The position numbers and the translations under genes are program-made. 64,000 bases of DNA from Obrimoposthia wandeli (lineage: Eukaryota): assembly GCA_977020255.1 (NCBI GenBank), contig CDROCS010002367.1:1-64000 (forward strand). Reading direction: 5' to 3'. The notes beneath the pieces were generated by a model that was given only the letters and a program-made list of their open reading frames with translations, had not been told where the DNA came from and did no database searches. Positions 1 through 38,270 of this stretch are shown here, piece by piece (position 1 is the first letter of the stretch; every line of letters begins with the position of its first letter).

Positions 1-1125
1 ATCAACTGGTTCAGTTACGTGGTAACTAGTCGCGGCATATGGGGTAAGAACACCAAACTAAAGCATTCATTGCCCCTAGTTGGCAATTAGGATACATTCA
101 TTGCCTTGCTTATTTGGTAATTGCGAGTGTAATATATTTTAACCATATTCATTGTCCCTAGCTGACAATTAGGATGGCTGTCTCTTTAACAAATCATTGT
201 CCCTAGTTGACAATTAGGATTGTCCATTTTTATTCATTGTCCCCAGTTGACAATTAGAATTGTACGAGTTTTTTCCCGTAAGATTCATTGTCCCCTAGCT
301 GACAATTCGGTTTCACTCATTGTCCCTAGTTGACAATTTCGGTCCACTCATTGTCCCTAGTTGACAATTCAGTCCTCATCCCTAATTTGACAATTCGGAA
401 CAAATACTCATTGTCCCCTAGTTGACAATTCGGTCCACTCATTGTCCCTAGTTGACAATTCCGGTCCCTCATTGTCCTAATGACAATTCAGTTCCTCATT
501 GTCCCTAGTTGACAATTCGGTCCACTCATTGTCCCCTAGTTGACAATTCGGAACTAGCCTCATTGTCTTAGTTGACAATTCGGAGTAAGTTTTTCATTGT
601 CATCGTTGACAATTAGGTTGTTTGGGAATCATTGTCCACAGTGGACAATTCGTGGTTAAATACTCAACAGATAGAGTTACGGACTCAAGAAACTTTATCA
701 CACATAAAGTTGAGTCGAAGAAATTTAAAGGTGCGTTATAGATTAACCAACCTAGGAAAAAATAACCCTAAAATCTCGATCACCGAACGTAAAATCGATA
801 CGTGGTTCATCCCCACTTCTTGTAGAGACTTACAGAAGTCTTAGGAATTTTACCATACTTTTTAGAAATACGTACATAAACGTATTGTTGTGTTTAGTTA
901 CATGTGAATTACCAATAAACAATTTCCTACATTAGAGAACAAGTTGTTTTACCCTTCAGAATAAAGACATCAAATCAAATACCTTCAGATAGTACAACAG
1001 AGATAGGCAACCATAACACTAAGTAGGCCACGACCAACTTTAAGACCTGCTTCTAATCAGAACTCACGTTGGGGCCCTCCGCACATAAGAGGATCTGTAC
1101 CAAGTTTCGTATAGAAACCCCAACA
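1..1125 (+). repeat. 5' LTR (3' part only)
   Basis: Aligns by eye to ~21601-22543 and ends ...GAAACCCCAACA; AATAAA at 914-919 is shared with 22345-22350. Confidence 0.9.
65..652 (+). repeat. Array of palindromic ~21-bp units CATTGTCCC(C)TAGTTGACAATT with short variable spacers, in the 5' LTR
   Basis: About 16-17 units by eye; each has the ATTGTC...GACAAT inverted repeat. Confidence 0.9.
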
Positions 1126-1925: not shown

Positions 1926-2571
1926 CAGTAAATTTGATAAAGTGAAATCGAGTGGATTGATAATCGAATTAATTAATTGAATAAGTTAAGTCAGGAGACT
2001 CTGTCCTAGAACTAAATAAAAATTTAAAAATCGTAAATAAATTTGATAAAGTGAGAATCGAGTGGATTGATACTCGAAGTAATTAATTGAATAGGTTAAG
2101 TCGGGAGACTCTGTCCTCGAACTAATTAAAGAGATAAATCGTAAAATAAGAATTGTGAAATAAGATAAAAGAGTAATAAGTAAATTGATATCGTAAACGA
2201 ATACATAATTGATAAGACAACGGATAATAGAAAAGGACCCGCGTATAATACTAGAAGACAAAGTCAGATTCCCAAGGAAGAGATAAATAATAATAAAGTT
2301 AACCGAATTGAACAGGTTCCCCAAACAGATAACAAAGTAACAGAAAAAGACTAGAGTCGAAGAAAACGTATCAGACAGAGACGTAAATCAATCAGCAGTT
2401 TCAACCGACAGTTTTGAGCTGACTGAGTTATTTGGTGAAATAAACCCAGAAGAAATTGATAATCTTGAAGTTCAAAACCCAGAAGAATTTGAAATTGCCA
2501 ATCCAGTAGTGATTGAAGAAGTTCAAGTAAATAATATTGAAGAAATAGTTGAAGACGATATAGTTGAAAAT

Positions 2572-4246
2572 ATGGCTCAACAAGGAGCTCCACCAGATAT
2601 TAATGCAGGAAATAATGTAGGTGAAATGAATGCCGAGCAGTTGGAACAAGCTTTAAATGCGACGTTGAGACCCAATTTTTCAGGATCATTGCAGATTACA
2701 AAGTTTAAAGGAGATGAGGAAAGTATTTGTGACTTCCTCGCAGAATATTCGAGTTGTGCAGATGTTCAAGGATGGAACGATAAAGAAAAATGTGTCAGAG
2801 TACAGGCACATTTAACCGGATTAGCACTTGAAGTGTATAAACATTTGACAGAAGCAGAACGCATAGATTGGCCAACGTTGGAAAATGCTTTTATTGGAAA
2901 ATTGGTATTAGGAGACTTAGCCAAAGTAAATAAGCGACTCATGAGAGAACGGAAACAGAAACATGATGAAGGCGTGAATGAATACGCGTATGTTTTGAGA
3001 ACCTTGGCCGCAAGAGCGTACCCATAAATCAGGACGGTAATCCTGTAGCTCCAGAAGCACAAGCAGCGGAAAATGACCGGAACCAAAATGAAATGGCAGA
3101 GGTTTTGTTAGATATATTTAGAGGAGGATTGAAAAGGGACATTAAAGTGTTATTAGCAGTATCGGATACAAATGATTTTGATAACGCCGTGCGAAAGGCG
3201 AGAGAGATTGAGAAAAATATAAAAAATAACGCAGCATTGGCAATTTACGCAATGACTGCAGGTGACGACGATAAGACAAAGGTCTTCGTGAATAAAACAG
3301 AACCGAGTAATTTTCAGAATCGAAATTATGGACAAAATAAGTTTGAAAAAGTAGATGAATCTAGTAACGGAAATAGAGATAATTTCCGAAGTAGGAATCG
3401 AGATGATTCGAGAGGTAGAAATAATAGTGAGTCTTGGAACAGGAATCGAGATGATTCAAGAGGTAGAAATAGTAATGATTCGTGGAATAGAAATAGAGAT
3501 GATTCCAGGAATAGATTTAATAGAGATAATTCAGGAAATCGCCAACCTTGGAGAGGAGACGATAGGAATTATAACCCAAACAGAGGAGAGCGAAGTGACT
3601 CTGGATTTGAAAATAATACAGGAAGTAGTGACGGAAGATTCAATAATCGAGGAAGCGGTTTTAAATCGAATTTCCGAAGAAATGATTTTAGAGGACGATA
3701 TGATAACAGACAGAATAGTCGTCGAGTACAGTTCGAAGATGAACAGAATAAGATAGATATTCGAGGGAGAATAATGTGTTACACGTGTAAACAAATGGGT
3801 CACTATTCGAGAGATTGTACGAGAAGTAAAGAGTTCGGAACTAACAGATTTGGAAATAATAATTTCGGTAATACTAATCTTGGAAATAATTATAGAGGAT
3901 ATAATTCACCCCGCCATGGAATAGAGGTGGTGGATATACTCCACAGCCATGGAGACCGAATAATCAGTATACAGATAGACAACAGTCACCAGGTAGATAC
4001 AATAACTATGCAGACAGACAGCAAGGAGCTGAGAGATACAATAATTATGTAGGACAGCAAGGAGCTGAGAGATATAATAATTCCGGTAGATATAATAATA
4101 ATAATGTTGACAAGACAAATAGTCGCGAGAGTTCGCCGAAACCGAAAGGAAATTTTAGTTATGTAAACGATGACAGCGATAGGAATCGCGAGACCGAACT
4201 TCGACGCGAAATAGATTTTGAAGATAGTGATAGTAAATTTGAACGA
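2572..4246 (+). CDS. gag: Gag: capsid domain, Arg/Asn/Gly-rich repeats, CCHC zinc knuckle (frame breaks at ~3025 and ~3910)
   Basis: ATG in good context at 2572; Ty3-like CA (KFKGDEESICDFL...WNDKEK...LTGLALEVY...W..L...F; FRGGL); CYTCKQMGHYSRDC at 3777-3818; after a -1 correction at ~3910 the frame runs directly into ORF 4247. Confidence 0.9.
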
Positions 4247-5955
4247 ATGTTGGGAATAATTAAAGATTCACCACATACAAAGATGGCGAATTCATCTACG
4301 TTGTCGAAACAAGAAAAAAGTCTACACTCGAGAGAAGAGATGAATGATTTAATGAACCAAATACTAGAAGCGTATGAGACACCAATAGAGAAAACGTGTA
4401 ACGCACAACCTATGACTGATCACATAGAAGCAGCAAGAAATGCTACGAGTATGGAAAATGTAGAAAAGATAATTAGTGAAGCTAAGGAGACGTTGAATCA
4501 ACCGTTAGATGAAACAAGTGAAGCTCCAGAAGTTTTGGCCAAATTGCAAACAATTAAAGTACACAGATTGGAAGAAGTGCGAGCAGAATTGGTTAAACAT
4601 AGTCATGATAACTTGGGTTACAAAGAAGTACCACGAGGATTATTGAAAAGATATGGTCGCTACGTACAGAGATCAAACCAAAAAGGAACGATGAAAATTT
4701 TGCTTCGATTAATTTCCGGACAGATTATACATGAAAAACTTAACGTGTATCAGACAATGAAAACGATTCGAAAAAAGTTGGCAGAAAAACTTGAAATTGA
4801 TGGAATGAATATGTTGTTCCATTATAAAGGAAGATCACTAGATGATGAGGACGTACCAGTCGAGTGTGGATATCCGATAGGAAACGAATTAGAGGAAAAA
4901 ATTGATGTCATCACTGTAGGACGTCAAGAGTTAGTAGATAATGAAGGATTAACAGAGATATTAAACTCTGCGTTAGAAATGATAAAAACGCCTATAGAAA
5001 TTTTAGACAGTTCAAGCGAAAGCGGAGATAATGATGTAGCTGAAGCTTGGAACAAGACATTCACACCAGAACCGTACGTAGCTGAATTACAAGACGTGAA
5101 TTTAGAAAATGAGTTGACGACTCCAGTGGTCGAAGTACCACCAGAACCAGATATAATTCAAATCAGACAAGATGAAGTCACGGATACAGCTAACCAAGTG
5201 AGACAAAACGAAAACGTAACCCAACTAGTAGGAGAAGACGAAATCTCCGAGATTGTAGATTTGGATTCACCAATTTGGCATGCTGCATACAGAGATAGAC
5301 AAGCAGAGCAGATGATGCGACAAAACGAAGAGATTGGCCATGAAGAAGGACCAAGTCAAGAGATACAGTATAATGGTGAACCGTATGATCCAGGCGAGAA
5401 TCAAACTGAGTATCAGTATTTTCGAAGAGGACCTGGAAGACCTAGAAAAGACGGGAGTATATTACGAAATGTTCTAACTGCACCACAGACTGATGAGGAG
5501 AGACATCTAAGCATTGGACAGTTAGCAGCGTCATTAGAGCAATATAGTACAGGAGCGGAATGAAGATATCAGAGGCGATATGAATTGGGAAGTTGCAAGT
5601 TGTACCGATCTACTTACGTGAATTCTAAGGCAAGTGAATCCAAAGTTGTTCAAAATGTACAAAAGATGAAACAACCGATATAACAGACAATTTGACTAAA
5701 GCAGTTAGATCACAAATGTCTGCAGTAAAGAGAATGACTGCGAATCATGTATACCATGCATCAATAGATAGATTTTATGACGGTGAAGTTTTAGCGAGAT
5801 TATGTGGAAACCAGACTACAAATAAAAAGTTAATTACAGCGATCACATATCTATGTTTCCAATTGACGGAACGAACGAGCCAACCTCACGAAGTCAAACA
5901 AGGAATAAATGAAGCGATGTATTTGATCGAGAATGTATTAGCAGAAACGAATTGA
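4247..5955 (+). CDS. Gag C-terminal extension with SUMO/ubiquitin-like domain (4691-4923), acidic linker and AT-hook (5423-5449)
   Basis: MKILLRLISGQII...LFHYKGRSLDDEDVP...EKIDVI resembles Ub/SUMO beta-grasp sequences; RRGPGRPRK is an AT-hook core; in-frame TGA at 5561-63 and a -1 break at ~5662. Confidence 0.6.
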
Positions 5956-6097
5956 CGAAAACGGAGGTTGGGCAAAATTAAGTGACTACGCTAAAACCAT
6001 TGTGGAAATGAACGAAGACGATGACGAACAATGTCATGAGAATAGTCAAAGAGAAAATAAACAATACTGTCCGAAAGAAAGAAATAATCAACCAAAT

Positions 6098-7970
6098 ATG
6101 TCCACAACAATGATGATGATGATGTTAGTAATGTTCATGGGAATGCAACAGGCATCAGGATTGATAGCATACGACTGTAGCATACCAAAGATGGGACAAA
6201 AGTATTCACTGCTTGACAGCGAAGACTGTCCAGAATCACAACCGTCAAAATTAGAAGTTAAAGGTGTTGAAAACTACTTTGTGTATCAGGATGTTGATAA
6301 AGTACAAGTAGAAGTGAAGAATGTGCAATCCATTCAAGTTATCACGAATTCTATTGTGGCCATAAAAGTTTTATGTCGGAAATCACACCTACCACACCGT
6401 ACAAGGCACATAAGGTTTTGCCGAGAGATTGCGAAGACGCATTTCGAACGGGAACGATAGAGGTAGACAAGAATTACAAACCTGAAGTAAAAATTGGAGT
6501 GAGACGATACGAAACAGTCACGAGAGTCGGACAACGATGGGCTGATGGATCTTGTGACGGAGAAACAAAAAACGTGCGTGGAACCAAAGTATCTGAGTTA
6601 GTAATGGACGTAACTTACAAAATCGACTTAAAAACATGGACCGCCAATTTTGATAAAAAGACACAACTAATGATGAAGTATCCAGAATGTAAAATGACAG
6701 ATACATCTTGTTTTACAGGCGAATCCACAATTGTGTATCAAGTGAATCCGAAGCAATGCTCTTTAGTATTTTTGAAAGAGATTAGTTTTAATAAAATAAA
6801 AGGATTCCTGTATAATAAAGATGGAGAAGGGTTCCTGTATAATAAAGTTGGAAAAGGATTGCTAAATGAAACAAGACCAATTCCAATGACAAAGACACCT
6901 ACACTGTTAATGGCAACATCAATAGAAGAAGGATTGATATTTATTAAAAAGAGAAACAAAGCGCGATGCGGAATGACTGTTAGTACTACAAACTATCCAG
7001 GAATAGTTTTGTCCAAAGAAGCAATAGCATTGGCAGAAACCAAGCTAAAACCAAAAGATATGCAGCTACACACGTATTTTAATAATAAAATTGATTTCTA
7101 TTATCATAAAGGATTGATGCAAATGGAACAGTTATATCGGATGATGATCGAAAGAGATTGCCAGCTAAACAAAGAGATCGTAAGAACAAAGTTAGCATTA
7201 GCTATTACGAATCCAGACATGGTAGCACCATTATTACCCTTGGATGAAGGAGTATTTGCTAAAACCATGGGAGAAGTATTGTATACTTACAAGTGTAATA
7301 AAGTAGAGGTACAGTTGAGAAAAACAGATCGATGTACGAGTGAATTAGCAGTAACGTATAATTTAAAAGATCTTTTTGTTGAACCAATCACGAGAATGTT
7401 ACTTCCAAAAGACACTCCAACTAAAGAAATCAGCTGCTCTAATATAATGGCACCTGAATATCAGATGACGAATGATCTATGGATAACGTTACCTGATCGG
7501 AAGCCAACGAAAACCCCAGCGATGATAAGAATGACGAATCTTAAAGGTAAAATGAAATTCCAAGCGGTGGAAAATATGGAGAACGCAGGATTGTACAATG
7601 AAAAAGATTTAAAAGCGGCGTGGAACGAAATAATGTTTCCAGTAAAAAGAGCCAGAGTACTTACGGAGATGGTACATCGAGCATTACCGCCAGGAGCTAG
7701 ATATGCGAATTTCGATATGTTATTATCGCCAAGTCATTTCAAGGAAGCAGCACATCAGACACTTAGAAAGATGTGGGGGAAATTCCTTGTTTTAGGACAA
7801 TTATTTTCGGGTATCATAGGTATTTATGTTATAATTAAATTTGTGCAGGTAATTATAGCCCAGGTGTTGTCTACGTATAGTTTATACAGGATAACCGGAA
7901 TCACCTGGCAACTTATAATTGGATGTTTTCCATTTTTAGCAAAATATCTAATGCACCATCATCACGAGAA
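6098..7970 (+). CDS. env: Envelope glycoprotein, chuvirus-like (class III, gB-like); frame break at ~6318
   Basis: Signal peptide MMMMMLVMFMGMQQASG then LIAYDC; after correction ECAIH...FYCGH; YFNNKIDF..., RDCQL..., GEVLYTYKC.KVEV, C..EL.V, LFVEPITRML, AGLY...IMFP, and two C-terminal hydrophobic segments all follow the chuvirus-like glycoprotein pattern. Confidence 0.85.
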
Positions 7971-8313
7971 CGAGTTAAGAGCCCTCAAGAAGGAACAACA
8001 CCAAACGAGAACCATGATGCGAGAACCAAGAAACTATCGAGACGACAACGACGACGATAATGATAGTCCAGGAGTATATGCAAAGATACCAGGAAAACCA
8101 AAGATTCCGTTACCAGACAAGGAAGAAGTGGCGTTAAACATATATCCAATGAAGGAACTAAAGGAGGAGAAGGAAAAGTTCAAGAGAGGCATCTTAATGG
8201 TAAGATGGCCTAAAGTGAGCTACAGTGAAATTCCACAAGCAGAGGAAAAAGACAAAAAAGATAATTCCAGAAGAATTCTGAAATCTAGGATATCAAATGA
8301 GAATCCAAATGCT

Positions 8314-8612
8314 CCACCACAAGTAGCAGTAACATTGAACGGAAGAGAATATCTTGCCGAGGTTGATACCGGATCTGCAGTATCAGTACTGAGTAAAGAA
8401 ATCTTGTCATCAAAAGAATTAAGAGAAGTATGTCCTAGAAAACAGACATTTGTTAACGTGAATGGTACAGATGTAGTGTCGGAAGGAACACTGAAATGTT
8501 CATTGAATATCGATGGAAGAGCATTGCAGTTAAATGCTAGAATATTCACAGATTGCGGTAGTCCAGTCATGATTGGGATGGACGTAATACGAATGTTTGA
8601 AGGAATAATTAT
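8314..8612 (+). CDS. Retropepsin-like aspartic protease 1, in frame with env
   Basis: LAEVDTGSAVSVL (DTG 8365-8373) and IGMDVI motif within ORF 6373-8931. Confidence 0.9.
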
Positions 8613-8844
8613 ACTACCAAACAACAAGAGTTATAAGAATGACAGTTCAGTGAGAGAGATAAAAATGTTGAGAGGACCCATAGTCGAAAAGGAAAAATGC
8701 ACTACGTTCCGTATGGGAGGTTCGTACCCAGACAGAAAACAGGAAGCGCTAGTAAAGTCGATACTTCACTACAAAAACGTAAACCTCGGACCACAAGAGA
8801 TGACGAGGAGAAAAATAACATATGTGAATCTGTCAGAAAGGGAT

Positions 8845-9840
8845 CCCATGAGATTCGAGAGAAAGAGACGAAATATATTAGAACAGTACTATTCAAAGAA
8901 ATGGCACGTAAAATGGCAAGATCAGGTTTAGAAATGTTAAACGCGACAAGTAGTTATGGTCATGAGGAAGTAGTACGATGCGTATGGTGTAGAGTAAAGT
9001 TTAGAGAGTGGGAAAAGAATGAGAAACCCAATGAGACGTCATAAAGAGATGCACCAAATTGTCCATTTCTTTTGAAACTAAAAACTTCAAACGTACCAGA
9101 AATCCAAACGGGAAAAGCACCCGATTTCGATTACAGTGACGGGATTCCAAAAGGAGAATCAGCTCTAATAACAGGTAGAGTAATAACGAATAGTCGAATT
9201 GAAGATATATTCGAAGTTATGCGAGAAGTGAACGAATGTGACGAACAGTATCGAGAAATAACCTTCGAAGACCCAAGACTTAAAAATTGGCAAAAAGGAC
9301 TTTTGCTATAAAAAAGGATGGTAAAGACGTAATTAAATGCCACAAGTGTAAAAAGAACGAATTATCGACAGATATACTCTTGAGCTACCTAAGAAAATTT
9401 TACATCATGAATTTTGCGAATTTTGTATTTTTAAAAACAAAATAAAGCAAAAAGAACAGAAAACCGAATGTATAATCGAATACCAAATCACACGGAAAGA
9501 GATTTTGGCTCAACAAGACACACCGGTAGTGTCATTCGTGAGAAGGTTATATCCAAAAGAAGCAGAAAGAATCAGAGAATTGGTAGAATTAAAAATAAAA
9601 ACTACGCGAAACGGATACGGATCGATTTTTGAATTACTGCGAGATAAAGATGACAGTACAATTGAAACAAAAGAGAAAGAGTACATAAATGAACTAGAAT
9701 ACGTACTAGAAGATCCGGAATGCGCAGTTTGCATGGTCAACAAAATAGAAGTTGCCTTTCTACCATGCGGACATGTAAGAACATGTCGGAGATGTGCGAA
9801 TGAAATGGTATCATGTCCAATTTGTCGAAGAATAATAGAT
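8845..9840 (+). CDS. Inhibitor-of-apoptosis (IAP) module: BIR, degenerate BIR, UBA-like, RING
   Basis: VRCVWC...W...P..(RH)KRDAPNCPF restores C-x2-C-x16-H-x6-C after a +1/-1 pair at ~9036-9046; second BIR-like D.IKCHKC...HHEFCEF at ~9260-9430; IRELVELKIKTTRNGYGSIFELL resembles the IAP UBA; CAVCM...FLPCGH..TC..CA.....CPICR at 9721-9828 is an IAP-type RING. Confidence 0.88.
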
Positions 9841-9949
9841 CGACAAGTGAGAAACATTAGATTTCACTATCCAAACAAAGGAAGTGGACTGACAGAGTGT
9901 AATAATTCGATAAATACAATATACCATATGGGAAACATAAATGGAGCAC

Positions 9950-12900
9950 AGCGACCAGCAGCTATCATTAGAGTAAATAATTTAAGAGTAAAAGCCTTAA
10001 TTGATACAGGTGCTGTAGCTTCGATAGTAAGTGAAGACTGTTTGACAGAGGAACAGAAACGAACAATGGCAGAACCAGATGAATTCTTGGTATCGGTCAA
10101 TGGAGACCCTGTAAAAGTGACAGGAATATTACCATGTACATTTATAATTGGACGTAATACGATCACTATACCAGTTAGAATCATGAAAGAATGTCCTGAA
10201 CCTACAATTTTAGGAATGGATGTATTATCACAACTCAAAGGGATAAGTATTGATTTACAAGATCCAAGATTGAAGGATAGCACATCAAACAGACAAATAA
10301 ACCAAATTGATGTAATTATAGAGAATCCTATAAAAATCGGTAAAAGATCACAATTTCTCATTCAAGGTCACACATTATCAGAAGATAAAGGACCAGTTGT
10401 GTTCGAACCATCACGAGATTTCATAGAGAAATACGAATTACCAGTTGTGAGTACAGTATGCCTGATCGAAAACCACAAAATACCAGTTAGACTGATGAAT
10501 ACAACCAACAATGACATTCTATTATACAGAGGAATGAGGTTGGGAAAGATAGCACAGATGGAGAATTCCACTGTATGCGCTATGAAACTCGATAAAGATA
10601 CGAATGATTACGAAGAAATAGTAATCCAATCAGAAAGACTGACAACTAGAGAAAAGAAACAATTACTTGATCTAATACATAAATTTCCGAAAGTAATTGC
10701 AAAAAATCCATATGACATAGGAGAAACACCTGTCATAAAACATACAATACCACTGACAGAAGACAAAGTAGTCAGAAGAAGACCATATCGAGTACCATTA
10801 CAATTACAAGATGAAGTAAAAAGTCAGATCGAAGATATGTCTAAAACAGGAGTAATTAGACCGAGTTTTCGCCATTCTCAGCACCTGTGGTGCTGGTAAA
10901 AAAGAAGGATGGGAAAATGAGATTCTGTATAGATTTCAGAGAACTGAACAAGATCACAAGAAAAGATGTGTATCCATTACCTAGAATCGAAGAGATGCTC
11001 GATAAATTGGGTAATTCAGATTATTTTACGACATTAGATTTGCAAAGTGGGTACTGGCAAATCGAGATAGAGGAAGAGGATAAACACAAAACAGCCTTTT
11101 CCTGCGGAGATGGATTATACGAATGCGAAAAGATGCCATTCGGACTGACAGGAGCTCCAGCAACATTTCAGCGTTGCATGAATTTTGTACTCGCATCGTG
11201 TGCAAACACGATGGTTTATATTGATGACATAATAATATTTTCGAAAACGTTCGAAGAACATTTAAAAAATCTGGAAGTTGTATTTAAAAGACTGGAAAAC
11301 GCTAAATTAAAAGTTAAACCTACAAAATGCGAATGGGCTAAAGAGCGAGTAACATTTTTAGGACATATAGTATCGAAAGAAGGCATTCGACCGGATCCAG
11401 CAAAGATCGAGAAAGTAAAAGCGCATTTAGCGCCAAAGACTGTTAAGGAGATACAGAGTTTTTTAGGTCTTGCGAATTATTATAGACGATTTGTTGAACA
11501 TTTTTCAGATATAGCAACACCATTGAGAAAGTTGACGAGGAAAGATGAGAAGTTCATATGGGAGAAGAAGCCCAACAAGCGTTCGAGCATTTAAAAGAAA
11601 GACTGATAAAAGCACCGATATTAGCGTTTCCAGATATAAACCGACAATTCATACTCATGACAGATGCAAGTAACTATGCTGTAGGAGCAGTATTGGGACA
11701 AGAGGATGACGAAGGAAGAGAACACGTCATCGCGTATGCGAGTAGAGGATTAAACAGAGCCGAAAGAGGATACTCTGTTATCGAAAAGGAATGTCTAGCC
11801 ATAGTGTATTCATGTAGACAGTACAGACACTATTTGCTAGGACAAAAAGTATTCCTGTATACAGATCACAAACCACTACAGTTCTTATATAAACATAGAG
11901 ATGAGATGAGTAGATTAAACAGATGGTTTCTAAAATTGGCCGAATTCGATCTAGAAATCCGTTATAGAACCGGAAAGTCGAACGGCAACGCAGATTGTTT
12001 GTCGAGATTGACAAATGTAGACGAGAAAGGAAACATAATTCCAGAAGAAGATGAAACCAATGACCAAAAGGAGAAGCAAATCTACTGACGATTTTGCTAA
12101 AAACGGGTAAAATAGACAAAGAAATCATCAAAGAACAGAAAGAAGATGAAGAGCTGAGTCTAATCAAAGAATTGTTGGTGAAAGGAGATCTAAACGATGA
12201 AATGACGAAAAAATACTCGATAAAAGAAGGAATCTTGTATATTGTCAATAATGTCGGAAAGATAGTAGTAGTAATTCCGAAGTCATTGAAAACAGCAGTG
12301 ATGATCCAGTATCACGACGGAACACTAGGAGGACATCTGTCAGGGCGAAAGACAATAGCCAGAATCAAAGAGAAGTACCATTGGGATGGTATGGAAGACG
12401 ACATAAAACAATGGTGTAAACAATGTAAAGTATGTTTAACCAGAAAAGACACCGGAACTCGTACTAAAGTTCCACTGAAACCAATGCCAGTTCCTTTGGC
12501 ACCAATGGAATTCACAGCGATGGATATATTGGGACCATTGAGAGAATCAAGTAAAGGAAACAAGTACGTCATAGTATTTACAGACTTTATGACGAGATGG
12601 GTAGAAGCATATCCCATGCAGAACCAGAAAGCTGAAACAATAGCGCAGATTTTAGTGGAAGAGATAATATTTCGATACGGAGTGCCTAGAAAGTTGTTAA
12701 CGGATCAAGGTAAGAACTTCACTGGAGAAGTCATAAAAGCAGTATCGAAGATATTCGGAATCATGAAGTTACAAACTTCACCATATCACCCACAGACAGA
12801 TGGTCTGGTAGAAAGGTTTAATAAAACTTTATGTATGATGGTACAATCCTATTGCTCAGACAAGCAAGAGGATTGGGATAAATATTTACCTTCATGTTTA

Positions 12901-13400
12901 TATGCTTACAGGAATTCAGTTCGAGAGGCGACGGGTCACACACCATTCTATCTGATGTATCTCAGACAGAACAATATGCCGATGGATCTGGAGTGGACCG
13001 AGCCAACATCTCAGTACCTAGAAACTGAACAATACATTGTCGTCATGAAGGAAAGATTACAAGATGCTTGGACCAAAGCCGGATTGAAGTTGAAATTCAA
13101 TCAAGAAGGTTACAAGGAACAATACGACAAAAAAGCAAAACCACATGAATTTAGAGTCGGAAATCAAGTGATGATATTTTATCCAGTCATCGAACCAGGT
13201 CTATCGTTTAAACTTCATAGACCATACAAAGGACCATACAAGGTGATCCAGACAACCTCAACAAATTTGAAAGTAATCAACGAAGAGAATCGGAACAAGG
13301 AACCGATGATTGTACATGCAAATCGATGCAAATTAGTACCAAATAAAGATAATGCGTCACGATATGAGTTAAGATCACAGAAATCGAAATCGAATACCAA
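9950..13400 (+). CDS. pol: Pol: aspartic protease 2, reverse transcriptase, RNase H, integrase (breaks at ~10868, ~11560, ~12082)
   Basis: ALIDTGA (DTG 10003); RRRPYRVP; VLVKKKDG.MRFCIDFRELN; YIDD 11217-11228; TDASNYAVGAVL and TDHKPL; IN HHCC, AMDILGP, TDQG, GLVERFN, GPY. Confidence 0.97.
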
Positions 13401-13521
13401 TACCATTAAACTTACACGAATGGTAAGTGATCGGAACTACATAAACATGATGACGAGTGGTAGCGAGAAAAAACCAGCGAGAATTGGTATGCTCAGAATG
13501 AAGTACCAAGAGGAAAAGGAA

Positions 13522-14495
13522 GTAATCCGACACATCGCACCACAAGAGATATTAGAAGAAGACGAAGAGATAATAGTCGTTTTCGAAAAAACACAACCAA
13601 CAGATGTAGCTAAAGAAGTCATTGTGAAAGATGCACTAACAAACGAATTTCTGTGCGAACTTAGAGTGTCATACTATGACGGAAATACACTAGTCGCAGC
13701 GCTTTATCAAAATTCCAATGTGTTTACGACTGAGAAAGTGATAATCGAAATCACATTGACACCAAACATAGTTGCATGGCAGAACTATGACAGTACTGAA
13801 GCAGGACTAGCCAGTCAGGAAGAAAAAGAACCGGCCGGTGGTCACATACTGCATGGTACACCAAAAAGACTCAAACAAGAATACCACGATGTAATAATGG
13901 TATTACGTAATTCACATGGGAAAAGAGATATCATGAGAGTCCATTTAATCGACGCTGACACTGAAAAGATAATTTGTCAGATGGACACCAAATACTTTGA
14001 TGGAAAGACAATTGTATGTTGTATACCAGAATCTCACCGGTTAGACACAGATCAAACGGAAGTATCTGTAAGGTTGAGCGTAATAGAAGGATTCCATTCG
14101 CCAACCCATCCGGAAGTGACTAACAATAAAATCATCAAAGCAACGGCAGAGTTACGCATTGACAGCGGATACCGAAAGTGGGAAGCTAAAATAAAAAACC
14201 ACAAAGAATCAATATGATCCGAGAACAAGTGACCAACTCAATCCAGCCAAAATATCATGCTGAAATAGTATCATCCGCGCCAAGTGTGATCACATCGATA
14301 AACGACGAAATTATAATTTTACTAAAAAATCGATGGCCGTCATCAACCGAAATACGAGTAAATTTAATTAATTATGCGAAAACACCGATATCTAAGCTGA
14401 ATGTTACCTATTTTGATGGATTGTCCATCATGGGTAAATTGGAAACAATTGTCATGTGCTATGGAGCACAGTTCCAAGTTGAGATACTTAAAGAT
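13522..14495 (+). CDS. Three tandem ~80-aa Ig-like (IPT/TIG-like) repeats after integrase
   Basis: Repeats at ~13522, ~13843 and ~14262 share I..xP....(D/E)(I/V)I(V/M/I), a V...D/N segment and Y(Y/F)DG.(T/S)(L/I). The repetition is clear; the IPT fold is inferred. Confidence 0.55.
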
Positions 14496-14951
14496 AGCGT
14501 AATACCATATCCGATTCACAAATACGAAGGGGAAATCAATCCAATTATTCTAACCCCTTCATTAATTTCAGTTCAGACAGACATACCAGAATACCCTTCG
14601 AGCGAGTCTAGTGAAGACAGCGAACCAGAAAGTAACGATACAGAATCAACAGAATCTGAAGATAACATAATAGAGCGATTCGGAAGAACCATGGAGGTTG
14701 AATTCGCTAAAGAGAGCAGAAAAAGACAAAACATAGAATTCGTGAAACAGAATATACAAGAAAGACGAATTAAATCAGCAGAAGAGACCGAGTCGGAAGA
14801 AGACTCAACAAAGGAACAGACACCAGAGACAAAGATGAATATCTCTCCAGCAATACGAATGCTGAGAGGAAAGAAACTGGCGAAACTATCCAACATCGAC
14901 GAACAGATAGAGAAGAGATTAGAAAGACTAAAACTTGAAGAGTCAGAATTA

Positions 14952-15380
14952 ATGCCACCAATGAGTGAGATCATTCCAGGTAAGTTATACCTCGGAAATG
15001 TGGAGGATGCAACAGATGAAAAGAAACTGTTGGAACAAGGGATAACATACGTGATCAACGTTACAATGAATCACAAATCACAATATCAGACAATCAGAGC
15101 TATGACATTAAGAGTAAAAGACTCAATGGACGCTAATCTTCTCGAATGGTTCGTAGAAACAAACGAAATACTTCACAGAGAACTCCGGAACCAAGGAAAA
15201 GTATTGGTACATTGTCAGAAAGGAATTTCTCGATCAGCAACTCTAGTATTAGCATACCTAATAAAGACTAGACGAATGCAGGTACTAGAAGCGCTAAAAT
15301 ACCTACAGGAGAGGAGAAGTATTGCAAACCCAAATCTTAATTTTTTGGGACAGTTGGCAAATTACCAACTTCTGTTGCAA
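14952..15380 (+). CDS. Dual-specificity (MKP/VH1-like) protein phosphatase with intact catalytic motif
   Basis: EIIPGKLYLG...GITYVINVT...VKD...VLVHCQKGISRSATLVLAYL...ANPNLNFLGQL; HCxxGxSRS at 15210-15236. Confidence 0.95.
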
Positions 15381-15477
15381 GAACAAAGACGGATGGATGA
15401 CATTCCTGAGGATCCAAAGGAAAAGAATTTCCTCCAAGCATTATCATTGACCGGGTTATTCTTAGCCGGAGTCGACA

Positions 15478-15900
15478 AAATTACACAGATAATGCCAAAA
15501 GTATTTTTATGTCATCCAGGAGATATAGACACTGCTGGATTAAAGTTCCACAGTATCAACCGAGTAATCAAAATTGTTGAAGTCGGAAACGAGATAATTA
15601 GTCTGTGTCAAAATACTGAAGACGACACCACTCGATACATACATGCTTCCAATCGAGAAATAAACGATGCACAACAACATCTGACGAAATTGACTCAAAC
15701 CATCCAAGCCGAAGTCACAGAAGGAAACGGCGTTCTGATATATCAGAAAAAAGGTACAATGTTAGCGCCAACCATAGGTGTATCCTTGTTGGTAGAGTAC
15801 CATGGTCACACGCCAGAAGAAGCGATGGTCTACATCAAACAGAATAGACCAGATACGGAATTCAAACCGTTACTCGTTCGAGAAATAGAGAAATACACCG
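15478..15900 (+). CDS. Second, catalytically dead DSP-like domain (pseudophosphatase)
   Basis: ITQIMPKVFL...INRVIKI...GNGVLIYQKKGTMLAPTIGVSLL...EEAMVYIKQNRP parallels DSP1 but lacks the catalytic Cys and Arg. Confidence 0.75.
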
Positions 15901-15944
15901 AAAAGAGGAAGCAACAACGAGAAACAAATTAAGCTACAACAACA

Positions 15945-18632
15945 GTGCCCAGCTTTCAATACCAAAGATTGCTAGCGATAGGCTTGTTAAGTTGTCTAAT
16001 GCCGATAACGGGAGCACAGGAGATAGGCTCCAACCACGGAAATAGTTCCTGGTTCAACGAAATCCACAATTACACCATACAGTACCATACGCCGGCACTG
16101 ATGATGCTATTAGTGTTGTTAGGACTAATTGATGTATGGATCATCCGAAAATGTCTTCGATCCGTGAGAACCGACAGTAAAAGATTTCAGTTTGTAAAGA
16201 TGAAAAGACCAAATGGACCAACGAACAAAGTGCTTGTGTATCTAGACGAAAGGATCGAAGACAACATAGTAAATGAAGCGATATTTTACCCACAAAACAG
16301 AATACTGAATCAATTTCGAATAGATTACGAAGCTGACCGACAGCGCACACTTGACCGAATATCAACAACATTCGCCGGATGCAAGCGAAGAAAACTAGTT
16401 GTAAAGGAAATACAAAAAGATGCTGATACAAAAGGACCAACGTATATATTCGACGGCGATGTCATCAAAACACGTGAGTATGGAAGTAAGAGAGTGATAA
16501 TTGAAACAATGGAAGGACATAAAACATGCTTGTCCGCCAAAAATGGATTCGGAAAGTTGACGATACAAGGTAAACCGGTACAGTTGATTATCGGAAGAAA
16601 TGGAATCGAGGAGATGTTAAAACAACGACAGACAACAAAACGATCCAGTCAGAAACAGATATCTCTCAAACGATTGATAATTAAAACCCTTTGCAAAAGG
16701 TCAGTCAAGGCCCTGTGCACCGTTGCACAAGGATTGATTTATGGAGTAGTAATTGGATTGGTACTGCAAGCCATGCCAACCAGTAAAGCCGAATTGATGA
16801 CACTATCCGAATATAATTTACATTTGAGAAATCTAGACAACACCCTAGAAATAATCAAGACATCCCACAGTAAAGCCGTGATGATCATGTGTGTAAAAGG
16901 ATGTCCAGGACGAATGTGTATAGTCCCAGCGACCGAAATGATAACACTTAATGGACATTATGGAATTAGTGTTGTCACATGTGAAGACTACATATTTGGA
17001 CAAACTAAAATAGTACTTCTCAGTGACATGTCCAACCAAAGTGCACACAAATTTAAAATATTAACCATCAAGAGTAAAGGAATACCAGCAGTACGTTACG
17101 GTATTCTAGAATTGGTTAATCCAATACTCGCACTGATCATTGGATTTATAATATTAATATTACTCATCTTGTTTTGTTGTACAAAGATAGAGTTGAGATC
17201 AAAAAAGAAACGTCATGATCTCGCAAGACGAACAGGTCAAATGAACTTACAAAAATTCAACACAATTATACCAAGACCACCATTTCTAGATGAACCAGCA
17301 CCAGAGTACCAGCCAACGATATATGAACATATCGAGGAAAGAACGTACTATATGAGTAATTTGACTTGTTTCATTGAAGTTCCTGAGTTTAGGAATCGAA
17401 CGATCATAGGAATCATGCTGATCATACAAATCACCACTACCAAGGCTAGTTATGAGATCATGATCAGTAAATGGAGACAAGACGTAATACGGGCAGTATA
17501 CATAGAAATCCCCCTTCTAAAAACAAATCACGTAGTAGACATTCATCTACAGATGTCAGCAACCGACAATATCGATCAGAAATTGTATGTCATCCGACAG
17601 GTCAGAATAAAAATCGACCAAAATACACCCGATTACAATTTAATATTATTGTATCATGAAAGAGTGTTATATCTACGGATAACAATATCAAAGAGGAAGC
17701 GGATTATCCAAAGTATCCGAACAAAGTCATTAATATTGCCTAGAGATGAGCGCATCTGGAAAATTGTCGACAGGATTATTATCACAGGTAGACGACGTAA
17801 AGCCGTATGGAATTCCGTTAGGATATTTTTCAGATTGCTAGAAACCGACAGAGTAACAGTAATGTGTTCCAACCCAGATGGCGGAATCAGATTCGAAATC
17901 CAAAGCCAAATGTTAGTACCACATTTTAACACAGAATGTCTGTGTAATCGAATTTCCAGTAATACTACAGAGACCTCGACCATAATCATGATAATAACAG
18001 GTGAAATATTCTACATAACTCTAAGATACCAGAACCGTCGATTTCGTAGATCCGGTATAAGTATCAAACCCAGGAAAATCATTCCCAAAAGGCCAATCCT
18101 AGTCAGAAAGAAGGCAAAAGTAAACGAAAGTAAACGTCATTCCAAAAAACCGACAGTGATCAGAACAAAGACAGAAGCGAAAGAAAAAGAGCTCAATCCC
18201 AGAAACCAAAGTACAATTATTAAGAGGACAAGAGTGAGGGGAACGATCCCACTAGATCCCAAACATCATTTCCAATCCAAAATAATAATACCTGTTCCAT
18301 CAGAAACAAAACACCCAAATCCCCGAATTTTTAGAAAATCGGACATAATACATGGAAACCGATCAAAACCCATGGAAATGTCATTCGAACCGACAAACAA
18401 CAAAATGAAGTATGATTATAAATCATCAGACAGCGGAATAACAGCGGTCAATGCCCTAATTGGAATGGCCGTAGTGTCAACAGCAGTGGTTCTATTGACA
18501 ATCGTGTGCGTGAAAGGCAGTCAAGTATGCCCAAGAATACGACGAAAATGCGAAGGATTGCGATGCTGTGACACACCCACCATGGAGGAAGTGGAATTGC
18601 GACCCTTACCTCCGCCTCCAATCAAGATATGA
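15945..18632 (+). CDS. Unknown multi-membrane-segment protein (signal-peptide / TM / tail units); in frame with the DSP ORF across TAA 15930-32
   Basis: 895-codon open frame with several hydrophobic stretches, signal-like ends (PITGA, PTSKA, TTTKA), Tyr motifs and a Cys- and Pro-rich C-terminal tail. Confidence 0.7.
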   Translation: MPSFQYQRLLAIGLLSCLMPITGAQEIGSNHGNSSWFNEIHNYTIQYHTPALMMLLVLLGLIDVWIIRKCLRSVRTDSKRFQFVKMKRPNGPTNKVLVYLDERIEDNIVNEAIFYPQNRILNQFRIDYEADRQRTLDRISTTFAGCKRRKLVVKEIQKDADTKGPTYIFDGDVIKTREYGSKRVIIETMEGHKTCLSAKNGFGKLTIQGKPVQLIIGRNGIEEMLKQRQTTKRSSQKQISLKRLIIKTLCKRSVKALCTVAQGLIYGVVIGLVLQAMPTSKAELMTLSEYNLHLRNLDNTLEIIKTSHSKAVMIMCVKGCPGRMCIVPATEMITLNGHYGISVVTCEDYIFGQTKIVLLSDMSNQSAHKFKILTIKSKGIPAVRYGILELVNPILALIIGFIILILLILFCCTKIELRSKKKRHDLARRTGQMNLQKFNTIIPRPPFLDEPAPEYQPTIYEHIEERTYYMSNLTCFIEVPEFRNRTIIGIMLIIQITTTKASYEIMISKWRQDVIRAVYIEIPLLKTNHVVDIHLQMSATDNIDQKLYVIRQVRIKIDQNTPDYNLILLYHERVLYLRITISKRKRIIQSIRTKSLILPRDERIWKIVDRIIITGRRRKAVWNSVRIFFRLLETDRVTVMCSNPDGGIRFEIQSQMLVPHFNTECLCNRISSNTTETSTIIMIITGEIFYITLRYQNRRFRRSGISIKPRKIIPKRPILVRKKAKVNESKRHSKKPTVIRTKTEAKEKELNPRNQSTIIKRTRVRGTIPLDPKHHFQSKIIIPVPSETKHPNPRIFRKSDIIHGNRSKPMEMSFEPTNNKMKYDYKSSDSGITAVNALIGMAVVSTAVVLLTIVCVKGSQVCPRIRRKCEGLRCCDTPTMEEVELRPLPPPPIKI

Positions 18633-18755: not shown

Positions 18756-19055
18756 ATGTCCGAAGAATGCCCAATATGTTTGGAAGATCTAACCGAACGA
18801 AGAACAAGACCCGAAACCTGCAACCATTTACACCACGAGGAATGTTTATCGACATGGATCAGAACTTATGGACAGTTCGGACATCCAACATACCCTTGTT
18901 GCCCTGTATGCAGAAGACAATTCGCAAGATTCATCATGTTAGAACCCAACCAAGAGGATGTATATGTACAGGTGGTATTCTGTTGGAAGAATTTCGGAGA
19001 GTGTTGGTGTTATTACTGTTTGTCAGAACGACAAAATCCGACCACTTTTGTGTAA
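18756..19055 (+). CDS. RING-H2 protein 1 with extra C-x6-C-x-C-x2-C motif
   Basis: CPIC...CNHLHHEECLSTW...CPVCR; CWKNFGECWCYYC. Confidence 0.88.
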   Translation: MSEECPICLEDLTERRTRPETCNHLHHEECLSTWIRTYGQFGHPTYPCCPVCRRQFARFIMLEPNQEDVYVQVVFCWKNFGECWCYYCLSERQNPTTFV

Positions 19056-19115
19056 ACATCACACAACCACCAGTCCTCAATCGAGCCCAAATTCAACATC
19101 AACCCTCTCACAGTA

Positions 19116-19421
19116 ATGTCTGGAGAATGTTCCATCTGCTACGAGAGCATTGTGGACTTCTACACCAAGCCCAACAACTGCGACCACCTCTTCCACGTCG
19201 AATGCCTCGAGACGTGGATCCCCATTGCCAACAGCAACAATCCCCTCGACTTCCCAACCTGCCCGATGTGCAGAGCGACCTTCTCAGTACACTACGTGTA
19301 CAACCAGGACAGCCTCCAAGCAGTGGTACCCATAGTACACTGCTGGAAAACCATCTGCGATTGCTGGTGCTCGTTCTGCGTGGAGGAGCGAAGCACAGGC
19401 CAGCCCAACTCCCAACAATAA
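19116..19421 (+). CDS. RING-H2 protein 2 with extra C-x6-C-x-C-x2-C motif
   Basis: CSIC...CDHLFHVECLETW...CPMCR; CWKTICDCWCSFC. Confidence 0.9.
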   Translation: MSGECSICYESIVDFYTKPNNCDHLFHVECLETWIPIANSNNPLDFPTCPMCRATFSVHYVYNQDSLQAVVPIVHCWKTICDCWCSFCVEERSTGQPNSQQ

Positions 19422-19760
19422 TCGAAGGTAACTTTCTGACTTGAACGTGACATCATGAACTACCCTGTGTATCGCATACCGCGATAAATTAGCTACCATA
19501 ATTGTAATCATAATTATATAATCTTGTGAACTGTAAATTGACCATTACCATTTTTATGTATGATGTTTAACTGAAAATTGTAATTATTATACTGAAATTC
19601 TAAAAGACAATTTTTATGCTTAGTGTGAATGCGTAAACATGCCTAAAATCGGAACAAAACTCGGTAGGATTAAATAACTAAGGATTCGTTTTGAAATAAA
19701 ATTTAAATTAACGATGAGAACGGTGAACCCCAAATTGAAAGGAGTTATTTTCTTGTGCAG

Positions 19761-20258
19761 ATGAAGTGTACCGTCTGCCTCGAGAAAATTTGGACGGCAT
19801 CGGCATCCCCTGTCGGCTGCCGTCACAAATTCCACGAATCCTGCCTATATACTTGGGCCCGACTTCGACCCGAAGGACACGTCAATTGTCCATTGTGCCG
19901 TACTCCCTTCGCGGAATGGACACTGCAGTGTCGAGGGCGCCACAAGGGCACCCATTCGCTCACCAGCTGTATTGGTGGCGAGCACTGCCATTGCCCCAAT
20001 TGTATCGCGCGCCGTCGCGATGCAAAACTCGCCCTCCGCGAGAAATATCGGTCAACCCGCGACCCTCGCTCATGGCAGCGTGGCCGTCAAATATGGCTCG
20101 GAAATCGCGGAGTACACGGGCGGTACACGACCATTTTTCACCCGAGCCAACATCTCACCATGCACCAGCAGATGATACTGTACAATGGCGGCCCACCATC
20201 GTATCCAGAACTACCACTGGAGCAGGTCTTGCTGTTCCTGAAGGACAGGAACGGTTGA
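19761..20258 (+). CDS. RING-H2 protein 3 with extra C-x5-C-x-C-x2-C motif and basic tail
   Basis: ATG at 19761; CTVC...CRHKFHESCLYTW...CPLCR; CIGGEHCHCPNC. Confidence 0.88.
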   Translation: MKCTVCLEKIWTASASPVGCRHKFHESCLYTWARLRPEGHVNCPLCRTPFAEWTLQCRGRHKGTHSLTSCIGGEHCHCPNCIARRRDAKLALREKYRSTRDPRSWQRGRQIWLGNRGVHGRYTTIFHPSQHLTMHQQMILYNGGPPSYPELPLEQVLLFLKDRNG

Positions 20259-21069
20259 CATATCCCTGACAATCTTGTTGACATATCCCTGACAATCACC
20301 CTTAATCTTTTCTTGTGTGTAAATTTTTAGTTGTGATAAGTAATAGTGTATGGTTTGAGACTTGCTCCAAATTACACATTATGATTTCCACAAAAAACCG
20401 GGATTTTGAAAATTTTGTTTTGGGCTTGTTTGATGAGTTGAATGATTGATTTTGTAGGGATGAACCTAAAATCAACAGCCAGAGGCTAGTATAAGTAAAA
20501 TCGATACGTTCCGGGGACGTAACTTTTTTGGAACCCCCGAGGTATGTTAGGTTTAAGAATTAAGAAATTAAAATAATTTAGTCGATTAAATACTAAAATA
20601 AAAATCCTTGAAAGCAAGGTTGAAAATTAAATTAAATATTAATTTTAGATTCAAAATTGAAATTAGTGGAAGTTAGGATAAAAATTAGGAGGACCACGAA
20701 GGTCGTGTATAGTGTAGGATATATAAGGTTAGATTAATTAACCCAAAAGTGCAACAAAGGCACATTAATTAAAGCAAAAAGAAAAAGGGAACAATTTCGA
20801 ACGTCAATCAAGGTAAGCACATTTTCGTGCAGTTAAATTGGAGTACTTAAATTAATTTTTCAGCTGCCGCCAAAACTCCAGTTGAAACAGCTGTCGACAT
20901 TGCTGATTGACAGCCAAGGTTGAAGAAATCGACTATAAAAGTCGTCGACCAAAAAACAAACAGACACAACAGGAAAAATCAATACTTCAGATCGACTGAA
21001 GAAATCGACCACATATTGGTAAGTGGTGATTTGGTGAAATTTAGATTAAACCATTTTAGATCACAAATT

Positions 21070-21540
21070 GTTAAAGGAATACGAATCTATTGTTAAAGGA
21101 ATACGAATCTATTGTTAAAGGAATACGAATCTATTGTTAAAGGAATACGAATCTATTGTTAAAGGAATACGAATCTATTGTTAAAGGAATACGAATCTAT
21201 TGTAAAAGGAACACGAATCTATTGTTAAAAGAATACAAATCTGTTGTTTAAAGTTAAAAAGAATACAAATCTGTGGCTTAAAGGAATACAAATCTATTGT
21301 TAAAGGAATACGAATCTATTGTTAAAGGAATACGAATCTATTGTAAAAGGAACACGAATCTATTGTTAAAAGAATACAAATCTGTTGTTTAAAGTTAAAA
21401 AGAATACAAATCTGTGGCTTAAAGGAATACAAATCTATTGTTAAAGGAATACGAATCTATTGTTAAAGGAATACACATCTATTGTTAAAAGAATACAAAT
21501 CTGTAGCTTAAAGTTAAAAGAATATCAATCTATTGCTTAA
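21070..21540 (+). repeat. 22-bp tandem array GTTAAAGGAATACGAATCTATT with a ~140-bp higher-order duplication, inside the inferred 3' LTR
   Basis: 22-bp period seen directly; variant block repeated at ~21202 and ~21342. Confidence 0.9.
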
Positions 21541-21636
21541 AAGAAGCCGATCAGCTCAATAATCCCAACTAGACCCAGTACCGGATTGACGCAGTCGCAG
21601 CTAGTCGCAGCATATAGGTAAGAACACCGACTAAAG

Positions 21637-22075
21637 CATTCATTGCCCCTAGTTGGCAATTAGGATACATTCATTGCCCCTTGTTGGTAATTCGAAATTG
21701 TAATATATTTTAACCATATTCATTGTCCCTAGCTGACAATTAGGATTGCTGTCTCTTTAACCAAATCATTGTCCCTAGTTGACAATTAGGATTGTCCATT
21801 TTTATTCATTGTCCCCAGTTGACAATTAGGAATTGTACGAGTTTTTTCCCGTAAGATTCATTGTCCCTAGCTGACAATTCGGTTCACTCATTGTCCCTAG
21901 TTGACAATTCGGAACAAATACTCATTGTCCCTAGTTGACAATTCGGTCCACTCATTGTCCCTAGTTGACAATTCGGAACCAACACTCATTGTCCTAGTTG
22001 ACAATTCGGAGTAAGTTTTCATTGTCATCGTTGACAATTAGGTTGTTTGGGAATCATTGTCCACAGTGGACAATT
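21637..22075 (+). repeat. Palindromic CATTGTCCCTAGTTGACAATT array in the 3' LTR (~12 units)
   Basis: Same unit as 65-652 but fewer copies. Confidence 0.9.
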
Positions 22076-32830: not shown

Positions 32831-33501
32831 ACGGAAGATGTCATTTTAGTTGGTAAACGATTAGCATTTAATTTTTTTTCGATACAAATTGACACTTCGA
32901 GCGTGAATTATAATAAACCATTTAAACAAAATTACAGCTCATAAAATCCCAGTAGACATTCTCTAAAAAGAACCAAAATATTCACAGTAAACTTATTATA
33001 GCCAAACACAAATTTTGACATGCAAGCCAAATCAACATAATTTTAGATTCATTAGATATTAGTGCTATATTAAAGGTATTATTGTTAGATATTTTTCTAG
33101 AATTTTATTCAATTCAAATTGGCCAATAGCAGTGGTTTGTTTCGTGTGTTTGTGTTTACATTACTAAATTTTGTTTGGCTAATTGACCATTGTAGCTTTG
33201 ATTGCACACGTGAATGGTGTGTGTCTTTGCTATATATAGTGTTTTGCAACTTTCAACAATTTATTACTCAGTTAGTTATGACGTCTGAGAAGCGTCAAAA
33301 TTAAGGCATAGTTAGAAAGTTTCAAAAACTATAAATTTTCCCTCACATATTTAATTATAAATGTTCGGCAATTTTAAAGTATATAATACTAAAATAAATA
33401 TATGTATAACGGATAAAACATCACATATATGGAGAGAAAAGTTGTTATCAATGTCAGCGACAACTTATTTCAATTAATTATCACGTCCTAATCCTGCCCA
33501 C

Positions 33502-33860
33502 CTGTAGCAGATGAAGAGAGCGGCATCAGACGCGGGGGCAGGACCAGGTGACACACAGACTCTTTCATAACGGAGAAGACAAGGAGCACTGACGAGGAGG
33601 GCCAGGACGAAGATAAAGACGGAGACGATAGTTGCAGTGCGTGCACGGCCCAGAGGGGACATGTGAGGTCGGGGACGAAGGACAAGGTCATGGCGATCAG
33701 CGGAAACGGCTAGAGTGGCCCATGTCGTCACGAGGACTGAGTACTGCGAGAGGAAGTAACCTACCGGGTAGTAGTGCGAATAGAGGGCGGCTCCAGCCCC
33801 GCCGACCAGCTGTAGATGCGGCAGCAACACACTCGGGAAGTACACCAGATCGTTGAGAAC
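33502..33860 (-). CDS. Host rhodopsin-type peptide GPCR (FMRFamide-receptor-like), exon encoding TM2-TM4
   Basis: TCTTCAG acceptor and CAG|GT donor; VLNDLVYFP...YPVGYFLSQYSVLVTTWATLAVSADRH (DRY-like)...IFVLALLVSAPCLL; joins the 36648 exon in phase 0. Confidence 0.8.

Positions 33861-38201: not shown

Positions 38202-38270
<69 letters not shown>

Follow-up and report, generated by a model that had tools for sequence, protein, structure and literature searches.

A Burro-like giant env-carrying Ty3/gypsy element in Obrimoposthia wandeli and the probable origin of its broken reading frame

A giant element in pieces

We analysed a stretch of 64,000 nucleotides from Obrimoposthia wandeli (positions 1 to 64,000 of the forward strand of contig CDROCS010002367.1, assembly GCA_977020255.1; hereafter the window). 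Positions 2572-18632 are the coding region of a Ty3/gypsy (Metaviridae-type) long terminal repeat (LTR) element of about 23 kb. In our judgement it is probably a young copy of a Burro-like giant env-carrying element (GAG-ENV-POL), with a reading frame interrupted mostly by single-base consensus errors. The domains run in the order Gag, ubiquitin-like, Bcl-2-like, Env, protease, BIR-RING, protease, reverse transcriptase (RT), RNase H, integrase, two phosphatase domains and a membrane tail, as obtained from Pfam searches with the natural open reading frame (ORF) pieces (19 in the main scan). Protease, RT, RNase H and integrase follow one another in the Ty3/gypsy order with intact motifs, and there are two LTRs with TG...CA ends and a site resembling a primer-binding site. 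The 5' LTR is truncated by the start of the window, beyond which the left end and any target-site duplication lie; the whole element would measure about 23.4 kb. Up to the integrase it is Burro-like, a placement made by domain order and by the published descriptions of Burro1-4.

The ORF listing and the frame table give 15 open pieces on the plus strand that tile 2341-18632, and the span from the ATG at 2572 to 18632 corresponds to about 5,350 codons. An earlier note on this DNA had proposed a single polyprotein of about 5,300 amino acids hidden by deletion errors. Every junction position that it named sits within its matching ORF overlap, and the one-sided direction that it described is borne out: 11 of the 12 frame changes go in the -1 direction (near 3025, 3910, 5662, 6318, 8895, 9295, 9370, 10868, 11560, 12082 and 14212), the single +1 lying near 5950. 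There are three in-frame stops, a TGA at 5561 and TAA codons at 9042 and 15930. The first and last of these had been recognized before; the break at about 9040 had been read as a +1/-1 pair, which is compatible with the sequence but unneeded, as the plain ORF listing gives the in-frame TAA. Codon-position bias backed the chosen frame in 15 of the 16 segments tested. Only 8643-8931 did not; this segment had been scored in the downstream frame, although its greater part is probably read in the upstream one. The coding region shows a strong A skew and 38% GC, compared with 30% in the flank. The coding pieces tested hold no A-run of at least seven, versus 11.7 in codon-order shuffles (0 of 500), and the flank holds many. 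The missing runs fit selection for holding a very long frame, and run-shortening errors could contribute. As for catalytic motifs, DTG is present in both proteases, YIDD in the RT, and the RNase H motif, the HHCC and D-D-35-E motifs of the integrase and the CCHC motif are also in place. The earlier description of the motifs as intact holds for these and for the first phosphatase, but not for the second phosphatase, which lacks the catalytic Cys, or for the BIR, which is interrupted.

Relatives are continuous from Gag to integrase

A library-wide search with the Env-protease piece returned 1,201 matches, of which 150 were listed, and 21 of these 150 were compared with the window by alignment. 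Continuity from gag to env was judged only on matches with E<1e-4 and on Pfam, leaving aside weak rows that were collinear at a distance. Among the matches listed, the relatives are about 20-63% identical depending on the domain (RT 53-63%, Env 27-43%), and none has an Env above about 43% identity. Relatives with a single ORF give tight matches on either side of the breaks near 6318 (10 of 21), 10868 (5 of 21), 11560 (5 of 21) and 12082 (4 of 21). Because the relatives are continuous there, the breaks within Env, before RT, between RT and RNase H and between RNase H and integrase are defects and not borders of separate genes. The break at 3025 is spanned by P0023 and, weakly, by P0070, and P0019 matches the sequence flanking the +1 break near 5950 on either side, at the right distance (0 and 11 of 500 shuffles). 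An apparently tight match of P0027 at 3910 was discounted as low-complexity.

Individual relatives illustrate how much can be held in one frame. P0032 carries gag, env, protease, RT, RNase H and integrase unbroken in 2,146 amino acids; env to integrase lies in a single ORF in P0016, P0020 and P0031; and env and pol share one ORF in these four and in P0024. P0070 joins gag, CCHC, ubiquitin-like, Bcl-2-like (Pfam E=0.055) and env in one frame. It is also collinear on both sides of the TGA at 5561 (48 versus 17 residues between the anchors), and therefore this stop is not the natural end of Gag. For the BIR-linker breaks at 8895-9370, between env and pol, no relative gave a local match; the BIR pieces do not align to P0020, and a search with the RING-protease piece returned four weak matches at 23-25%. 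On sequence comparison, then, a single polyprotein from Gag to integrase is supported, both by the single-ORF relatives and by the published Burro ORF1. This is the part of the earlier proposal that stands, and the last ~1,470 codons, past 14212 and across the TAA at 15930, are only probably fused to it. Fusion is favoured by the published ORF lengths of 4,873 and 5,140 amino acids, which need a long extension and with which the total length found here agrees. It is also favoured by the tail itself, in which the first Met comes after the first hydrophobic segment. P0016 carries its own in-frame extension after the integrase, with hydrophobic segments.

Consensus error against decay and other explanations

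We regard error in the long-read consensus as the probable main cause of the breaks. If the breaks came from decay, 11 of 12 changes in the -1 direction would have P=0.003 at a 50:50 ratio, 0.04 at a 65% share of -1 and 0.085 at 70% (0.02-0.085 over 60-70%). As to the earlier claim that nearly all breaks are repaired by adding one base to a short run, runs of at least two are found in 84-99% of all same-sized windows, and this criterion was dropped as uninformative; in a selection-free test on the narrow ORF overlaps, a run of at least four occurred in 6 of 7, versus 3.0 expected (P=0.025). The two LTRs, aligned over 26-1128 and 21601-22546, differ by 21 indels versus 10 substitutions in 761 columns, with 7 of the 10 substitutions adjoining a gap, an indel excess with P<2e-7 for assumed indel/substitution ratios up to 0.3. 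Indels drop away from the window start, with 4 in 289 columns of the leader repeats and 0 in 288 columns of the 3' LTR repeats, and the last 4.4 kb, after 14212, shows no frame change (P=0.02). Such a gradient would fit a contig that ends within an unspanned repeat.

Several observations weigh against the error reading or against the full-length polyprotein joined to it. At the positions given by the earlier note, a run of at least four lies within 3 nt in 4 of 11 cases versus 0.8 expected, a circular comparison since the positions had been chosen at runs; in windows placed by homologs, only 1 of 3 has such a run. The LTR indels go in both directions (11 versus 10); 12 of the 21 are 1 bp, but they are often 2-3 bp and not homopolymer-dominated, and they amount to 28 per kb of the pair versus 0.75 coding breaks per kb, a difference of about 37-fold. 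They are therefore not the product of the same process as the coding breaks, and may be due in part to the presence of two LTR variants or to chimeric assembly. A KS test of the positional gradient was not significant (P=0.13). The ratio of frameshifts to stops was dropped as a discriminator, because neutral decay at 0.1-0.2 indels per substitution (assumed values) fits it, with P=0.08-0.6. The Bcl-2-like region gave no direct match in Pfam, in a PDB sequence search or in the Atlas. Finally, 14212 and 15930 are spanned by 0 of 21 relatives, and none links the integrase to the phosphatases or the tail.

It is unlikely, though it deserves to be weighed seriously, that the breaks are real, and that this is a single-ORF copy that died after insertion by picking up about twelve small indels along with two or three nonsense mutations. 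Decay would give a frameshift share of 0.65-0.79, with which the observed mix agrees at the P range just given, and a divergence of 0.65% per copy predicts about 4 stops and 8 shifts. Substitutions also explain the in-frame stops more easily, and decaying Burro fragments with stops and frameshifts are described from Dugesia japonica (PMC6431247). Set against this are the shared direction of 11 of the 12 shifts, the indel excess between the LTRs, and the 3' LTR repeats free of indels when the 5' leader has several. A divergence of 0.2-0.65% per copy leads one to expect 1-4 true stops, so the copy may be dead even if its shifts are artefacts. The claim of consensus error comes out as probable through the direction bias, the mild run enrichment and the indel excess between the LTRs, while the ratio of shifts to stops would suit decay and the LTR indels are of another type. 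Recent activity, which had also been proposed, is plausible from the sequence, given the few isolated LTR substitutions and the intact motifs, and the stops may be real.

How far the ORF extends is a separate matter. It could end after the integrase (near 14212) or after the phosphatases (TAA 15930), giving a polyprotein of ~3,900-4,450 amino acids, with the rest made separately through splicing, programmed -1 frameshifting or readthrough; we hold this to be possible but doubtful. Besides the unspanned junctions, it would suit the slippery-type heptamer in the 14212 overlap (2 of 11 overlaps have one), the separate RING ORFs downstream, and the finding that Burro cargo lies either in the ORF or in accessory frames (PMC6431247, in part). 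But no stable stimulatory fold follows 14212, 15930, 5561, 9042 or 9370 (z -1.4 to +1.8), the tail offers no Met ahead of its first hydrophobic segment, the extension of P0016 lies in the same ORF as its integrase, and the published lengths require a long extension. A scheme of many programmed frameshifts, or of naturally separate ORFs, appears very improbable. Programmed frameshifting is usually -1, which agrees with the direction seen, but the breaks fall inside Env, the Bcl-2-like domain, the BIR and the RT/RNase H region. The relatives are continuous there, which largely refutes this scheme; in addition, 9 of the 11 overlaps lack a slippery heptamer, and no Rfam element was found in 1-23000.

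Anatomy of the element

All features described here lie on the plus strand. The 3' part of the 5' LTR occupies 1-1125 and holds a ~31-bp tandem array before its AACA end. Window positions 1-25 have no alignment to the 3' LTR, and the following 100 nt diverge more than the LTR core; these first positions are possibly an LTR variant, a recombinant or a low-quality contig end. A primer-binding-site-like 18-mer with a TGG start lies at 1134-1151, 8 nt past the LTR end, and may resemble the 3' end of an elongator tRNA-Met. The 5' leader (1184-2130) contains 51-, 49- and 110-bp tandem arrays, and in the 49-bp array 4 of 9 units lack 1-2 nt. The 3' LTR, of ~2.0 kb (20545-22543, TGTT...AACA), contains 22-bp/141-bp and ~31-bp arrays; its start is placed from the terminal repeat only.

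Gag (2572-4052) has a capsid-like region that matches Retrotrans_gag weakly (E=0.0065), as well as RD/N-rich repeats, one CCHC knuckle and the breaks near 3025 and 3910; it matches the relatives P0023, P0070 and P0032. A weak ubiquitin-like domain follows at 4649-4870 (Pfam ubiquitin E=0.0011), collinear with P0070 (4 of 500 shuffles). The Bcl-2-like domain (5665-5977), a candidate, begins after the TGA at 5561 and the break at ~5662 and is split by the +1 break near 5950. It matches residues 649-710 of P0070 (E=5e-7), of which 651-748 match Pfam Bcl-2 at E=0.055; a single-sequence model had a pLDDT of 54 and no Foldseek match. Env (6100-8050) is a class III (chuvirus/mononegavirus-like, gB-type) fusion glycoprotein with a C-terminal transmembrane helix. 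The break near 6318 divides it into two pieces that match PF24664 (Monjiviricetes fusion glycoprotein) at E=4e-6 and 2e-83. A Met-rich hydrophobic stretch is also visible, under the hydropathy threshold used.

Aspartic protease 1 (8323-8600, Pfam) is 28% identical to protease 2. Between the two lies an IAP-like module at 8850-9850 that comprises a BIR (E=4e-4, interrupted near 8895 and 9042), a linker with the breaks near 9295 and 9370, and a C3HC4 RING (E=4e-12). Protease 2 (Pfam) and the spacer ahead of RT take up 9950-10860. Within the spacer, 10261-10641 had no Pfam match; the published dUTPase-like call at this place in Burro came from HHpred. RT, RNase H and integrase (10860-13450, Pfam) contain the breaks near 10868, 11560 and 12082. 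Several relatives have 2-5 D[TS]G motifs in one ORF (five in P0018, three each in P0019 and P0016), so protease duplication is a trait of the group.

Cargo beyond the integrase

The piece after the integrase (14190-15932), which starts at the ~14212 break and ends at the TAA at 15930, carries two dual-specificity phosphatase domains; PF00782 matches at E=8e-40 in two stretches. The first domain has an intact CX5R motif (HCxxGxxR), and the best named match of this piece is a Slingshot phosphatase, with 37% identity over 24% of the query. The tail, an 899-codon open frame of no family (15933-18632), has six hydrophobic segments, the first upstream of the first Met. It gave no Pfam match below E=0.04, and its leads in the Atlas were viral glycoproteins at 0.82 or less, which are weak. 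Three short accessory RING-finger ORFs of 99, 101 and 165 amino acids (18756-20258, Pfam) are paralogous (pairwise 28-39% identical) and, at 46% GC, richer than the remaining element.

The phosphatase motif occurs in 0 of 12 relatives and the tail is unmatched in relatives, nor does it align to the P0016 extension. A long-protein search with the post-integrase part returned 15 cellular phosphatases only and no full-length relative. A second one, over a length range up to 5,000 amino acids, yielded 0 of 1,745 candidates, and a relative of 5,300 amino acids could not have shown up within that limit.

A model of the element

By analogy with LTR-element biology, the full-length RNA would be translated into one polyprotein. 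The Met-rich hydrophobic stretch might act as an internal signal that directs Env into the endoplasmic reticulum, and the transmembrane helix of Env would bring the chain back to the cytosol. Gag, Env, Pol and the cargo would then be cut free by the signal peptidase of the host and the element's own two proteases, after which RT/RNase H would reverse-transcribe the RNA, starting from a tRNA primer, and the integrase would insert the copy. Judging from domain names, the Bcl-2-like and BIR-RING cargo may keep the host cell alive, with ubiquitination and dephosphorylation as putative further roles. Most of the 12 frame changes would be single-base long-read errors inside an unspanned repeat, and from one to three stops may be genuine changes in this copy. 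Both phosphatase domains and the membrane tail probably belong to the same ORF.

More tentatively, the element could represent an undescribed Burro-like family, with a single ~5,350-amino-acid polyprotein, longer than the published 4,873 and 5,140, that includes after the integrase a captured pair of an active and a pseudo phosphatase and a multi-pass membrane cassette of ~900 amino acids (possibly a second surface protein), together with the three RING ORFs. It would be recently active and enveloped, and would manipulate host apoptosis, ubiquitination and phosphorylation. We consider this fuller picture possible but unlikely as a whole.

The flanking DNA

The host genome is very AT-rich and, to judge from the element, most likely that of a triclad flatworm. 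The flank, from 22544, has 29.7% GC, which fits the AT content of >70% quoted in PMC11410931 but does not by itself identify a host. On the minus strand, 33495-33870 is a 58% GC island in 28% GC DNA with a fragment of a rhodopsin-family seven-transmembrane protein (Pfam E=3e-4). The composition changes sharply at its edges, as would be expected of an insert of foreign origin, a chimeric read or a transferred fragment. A host gene was sought as a control for the error rate; 1 of the 59 flank ORFs scanned (65 listed) matched Pfam, namely this short and unusable fragment. A second, small decayed gypsy element lies at 56229-58237 on the plus strand, with RNase H and integrase remnants between direct repeats of 151-161 bp (90-92% identity). 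Old dispersed repeats of 72-79% identity pair 47528-48248 with 60557-61354 and 36150-36236 with 51296-51382. There is also an (AT)32 microsatellite at 38205-38268 and a 15-bp tandem array at 23997-24070, and a search for tRNA genes found none.

Comparison with known elements

A single giant ORF with env in frame and anti-apoptotic cargo has already been described for planarian Burro elements, so the headline features are not new. The earlier note had missed the Burro likeness, for which the giant ORF was already on record. What is perhaps undescribed is the phosphatase pair with the membrane tail, and the primary Burro papers may already list both. Section 7 of PMC6431247 mentions neither these nor the RING ORFs, which the primary papers may list as well. 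The word "phosphatase" does not occur in the main text of PMC13524379, and "dual specificity phosphatase" occurs in 0 of the 20 papers listed, of 24, in a literature search. More generally, noisy assemblies can give such elements the look of dead copies and conceal their ORFs from protein databases. BURRO1 has been called abundant and active (PMC8532177, in part), and a study cited in PMC13465017 reports that planarian stem cells are protected by its BIR-RING region; on this account further captured regulators could be of interest. PMC13238120 and bioRxiv 10.64898/2025.12.11.693146, both in part, served as context only.

The flatworm GAG-ENV-POL elements with a gB-type env include six from Schmidtea mediterranea, Smed_errantivirus_1-6 (PMC13524379, in part). 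These share the gene order, the env class and, by eye, the env cysteine pattern with our element, and span 14.5-18 kb; by eye, 0 of 6 env segments have the same sequence as the Env in the window, which probably belongs to another family. From the library, P0016, P0020, P0031, P0032, P0070 and P0019 share either the single-ORF arrangement of env, protease, RT, RNase H and integrase or that of gag, Bcl-2 and env.

The closest likeness is to Burro1-4/GYPSM1 of S. mediterranea and the Dugesia tigrina element, whose single ORFs comprise 4,873 and 5,140 amino acids, respectively (PMC6431247, in part, as for what follows on Burro). The Burro ORF encodes Gag, ubiquitin/SUMO-like and BCL2-like domains, an in-frame env, protease, BIR, RT, RNase H and integrase, with accessory ORFs besides. 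Its env, with matches to mononegavirus fusion proteins, lies between gag and pol, and the elements have been proposed to be proviruses. In the window, the PF24664 Env likewise lies between Gag and protease, in frame in the relatives and broken in this copy. Apoptosis and ubiquitin cargo is found as BIR plus RING, ubiquitin (E=0.001) and, via P0070 only, Bcl-2. For an ORF of ~5,000 amino acids the span of ~5,350 codons is available, with continuity in relatives up to the integrase only. MATH/TRAF and ankyrin, motifs of Burro1/GYPSM1, had no Pfam match; since MATH lies outside ORF1 in the D. tigrina element, its absence speaks against Burro1 itself and not against the Burro-like group. The element here differs in having a single CCHC knuckle, where the published ones have three and two, a total of ~23 kb (published over 30 kb) and, in comparison with section 7 of PMC6431247, two proteases, the phosphatase pair, the 899-amino-acid tail and the three RING ORFs. 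It probably shares with the Burro elements the giant ORF, and it shares Gag-CCHC, the ubiquitin-like and Bcl-2-like domains, the in-frame env, protease, BIR and RT-RNase H-integrase, along with accessory ORFs, tandem repeats and an internal region of about 19 kb.

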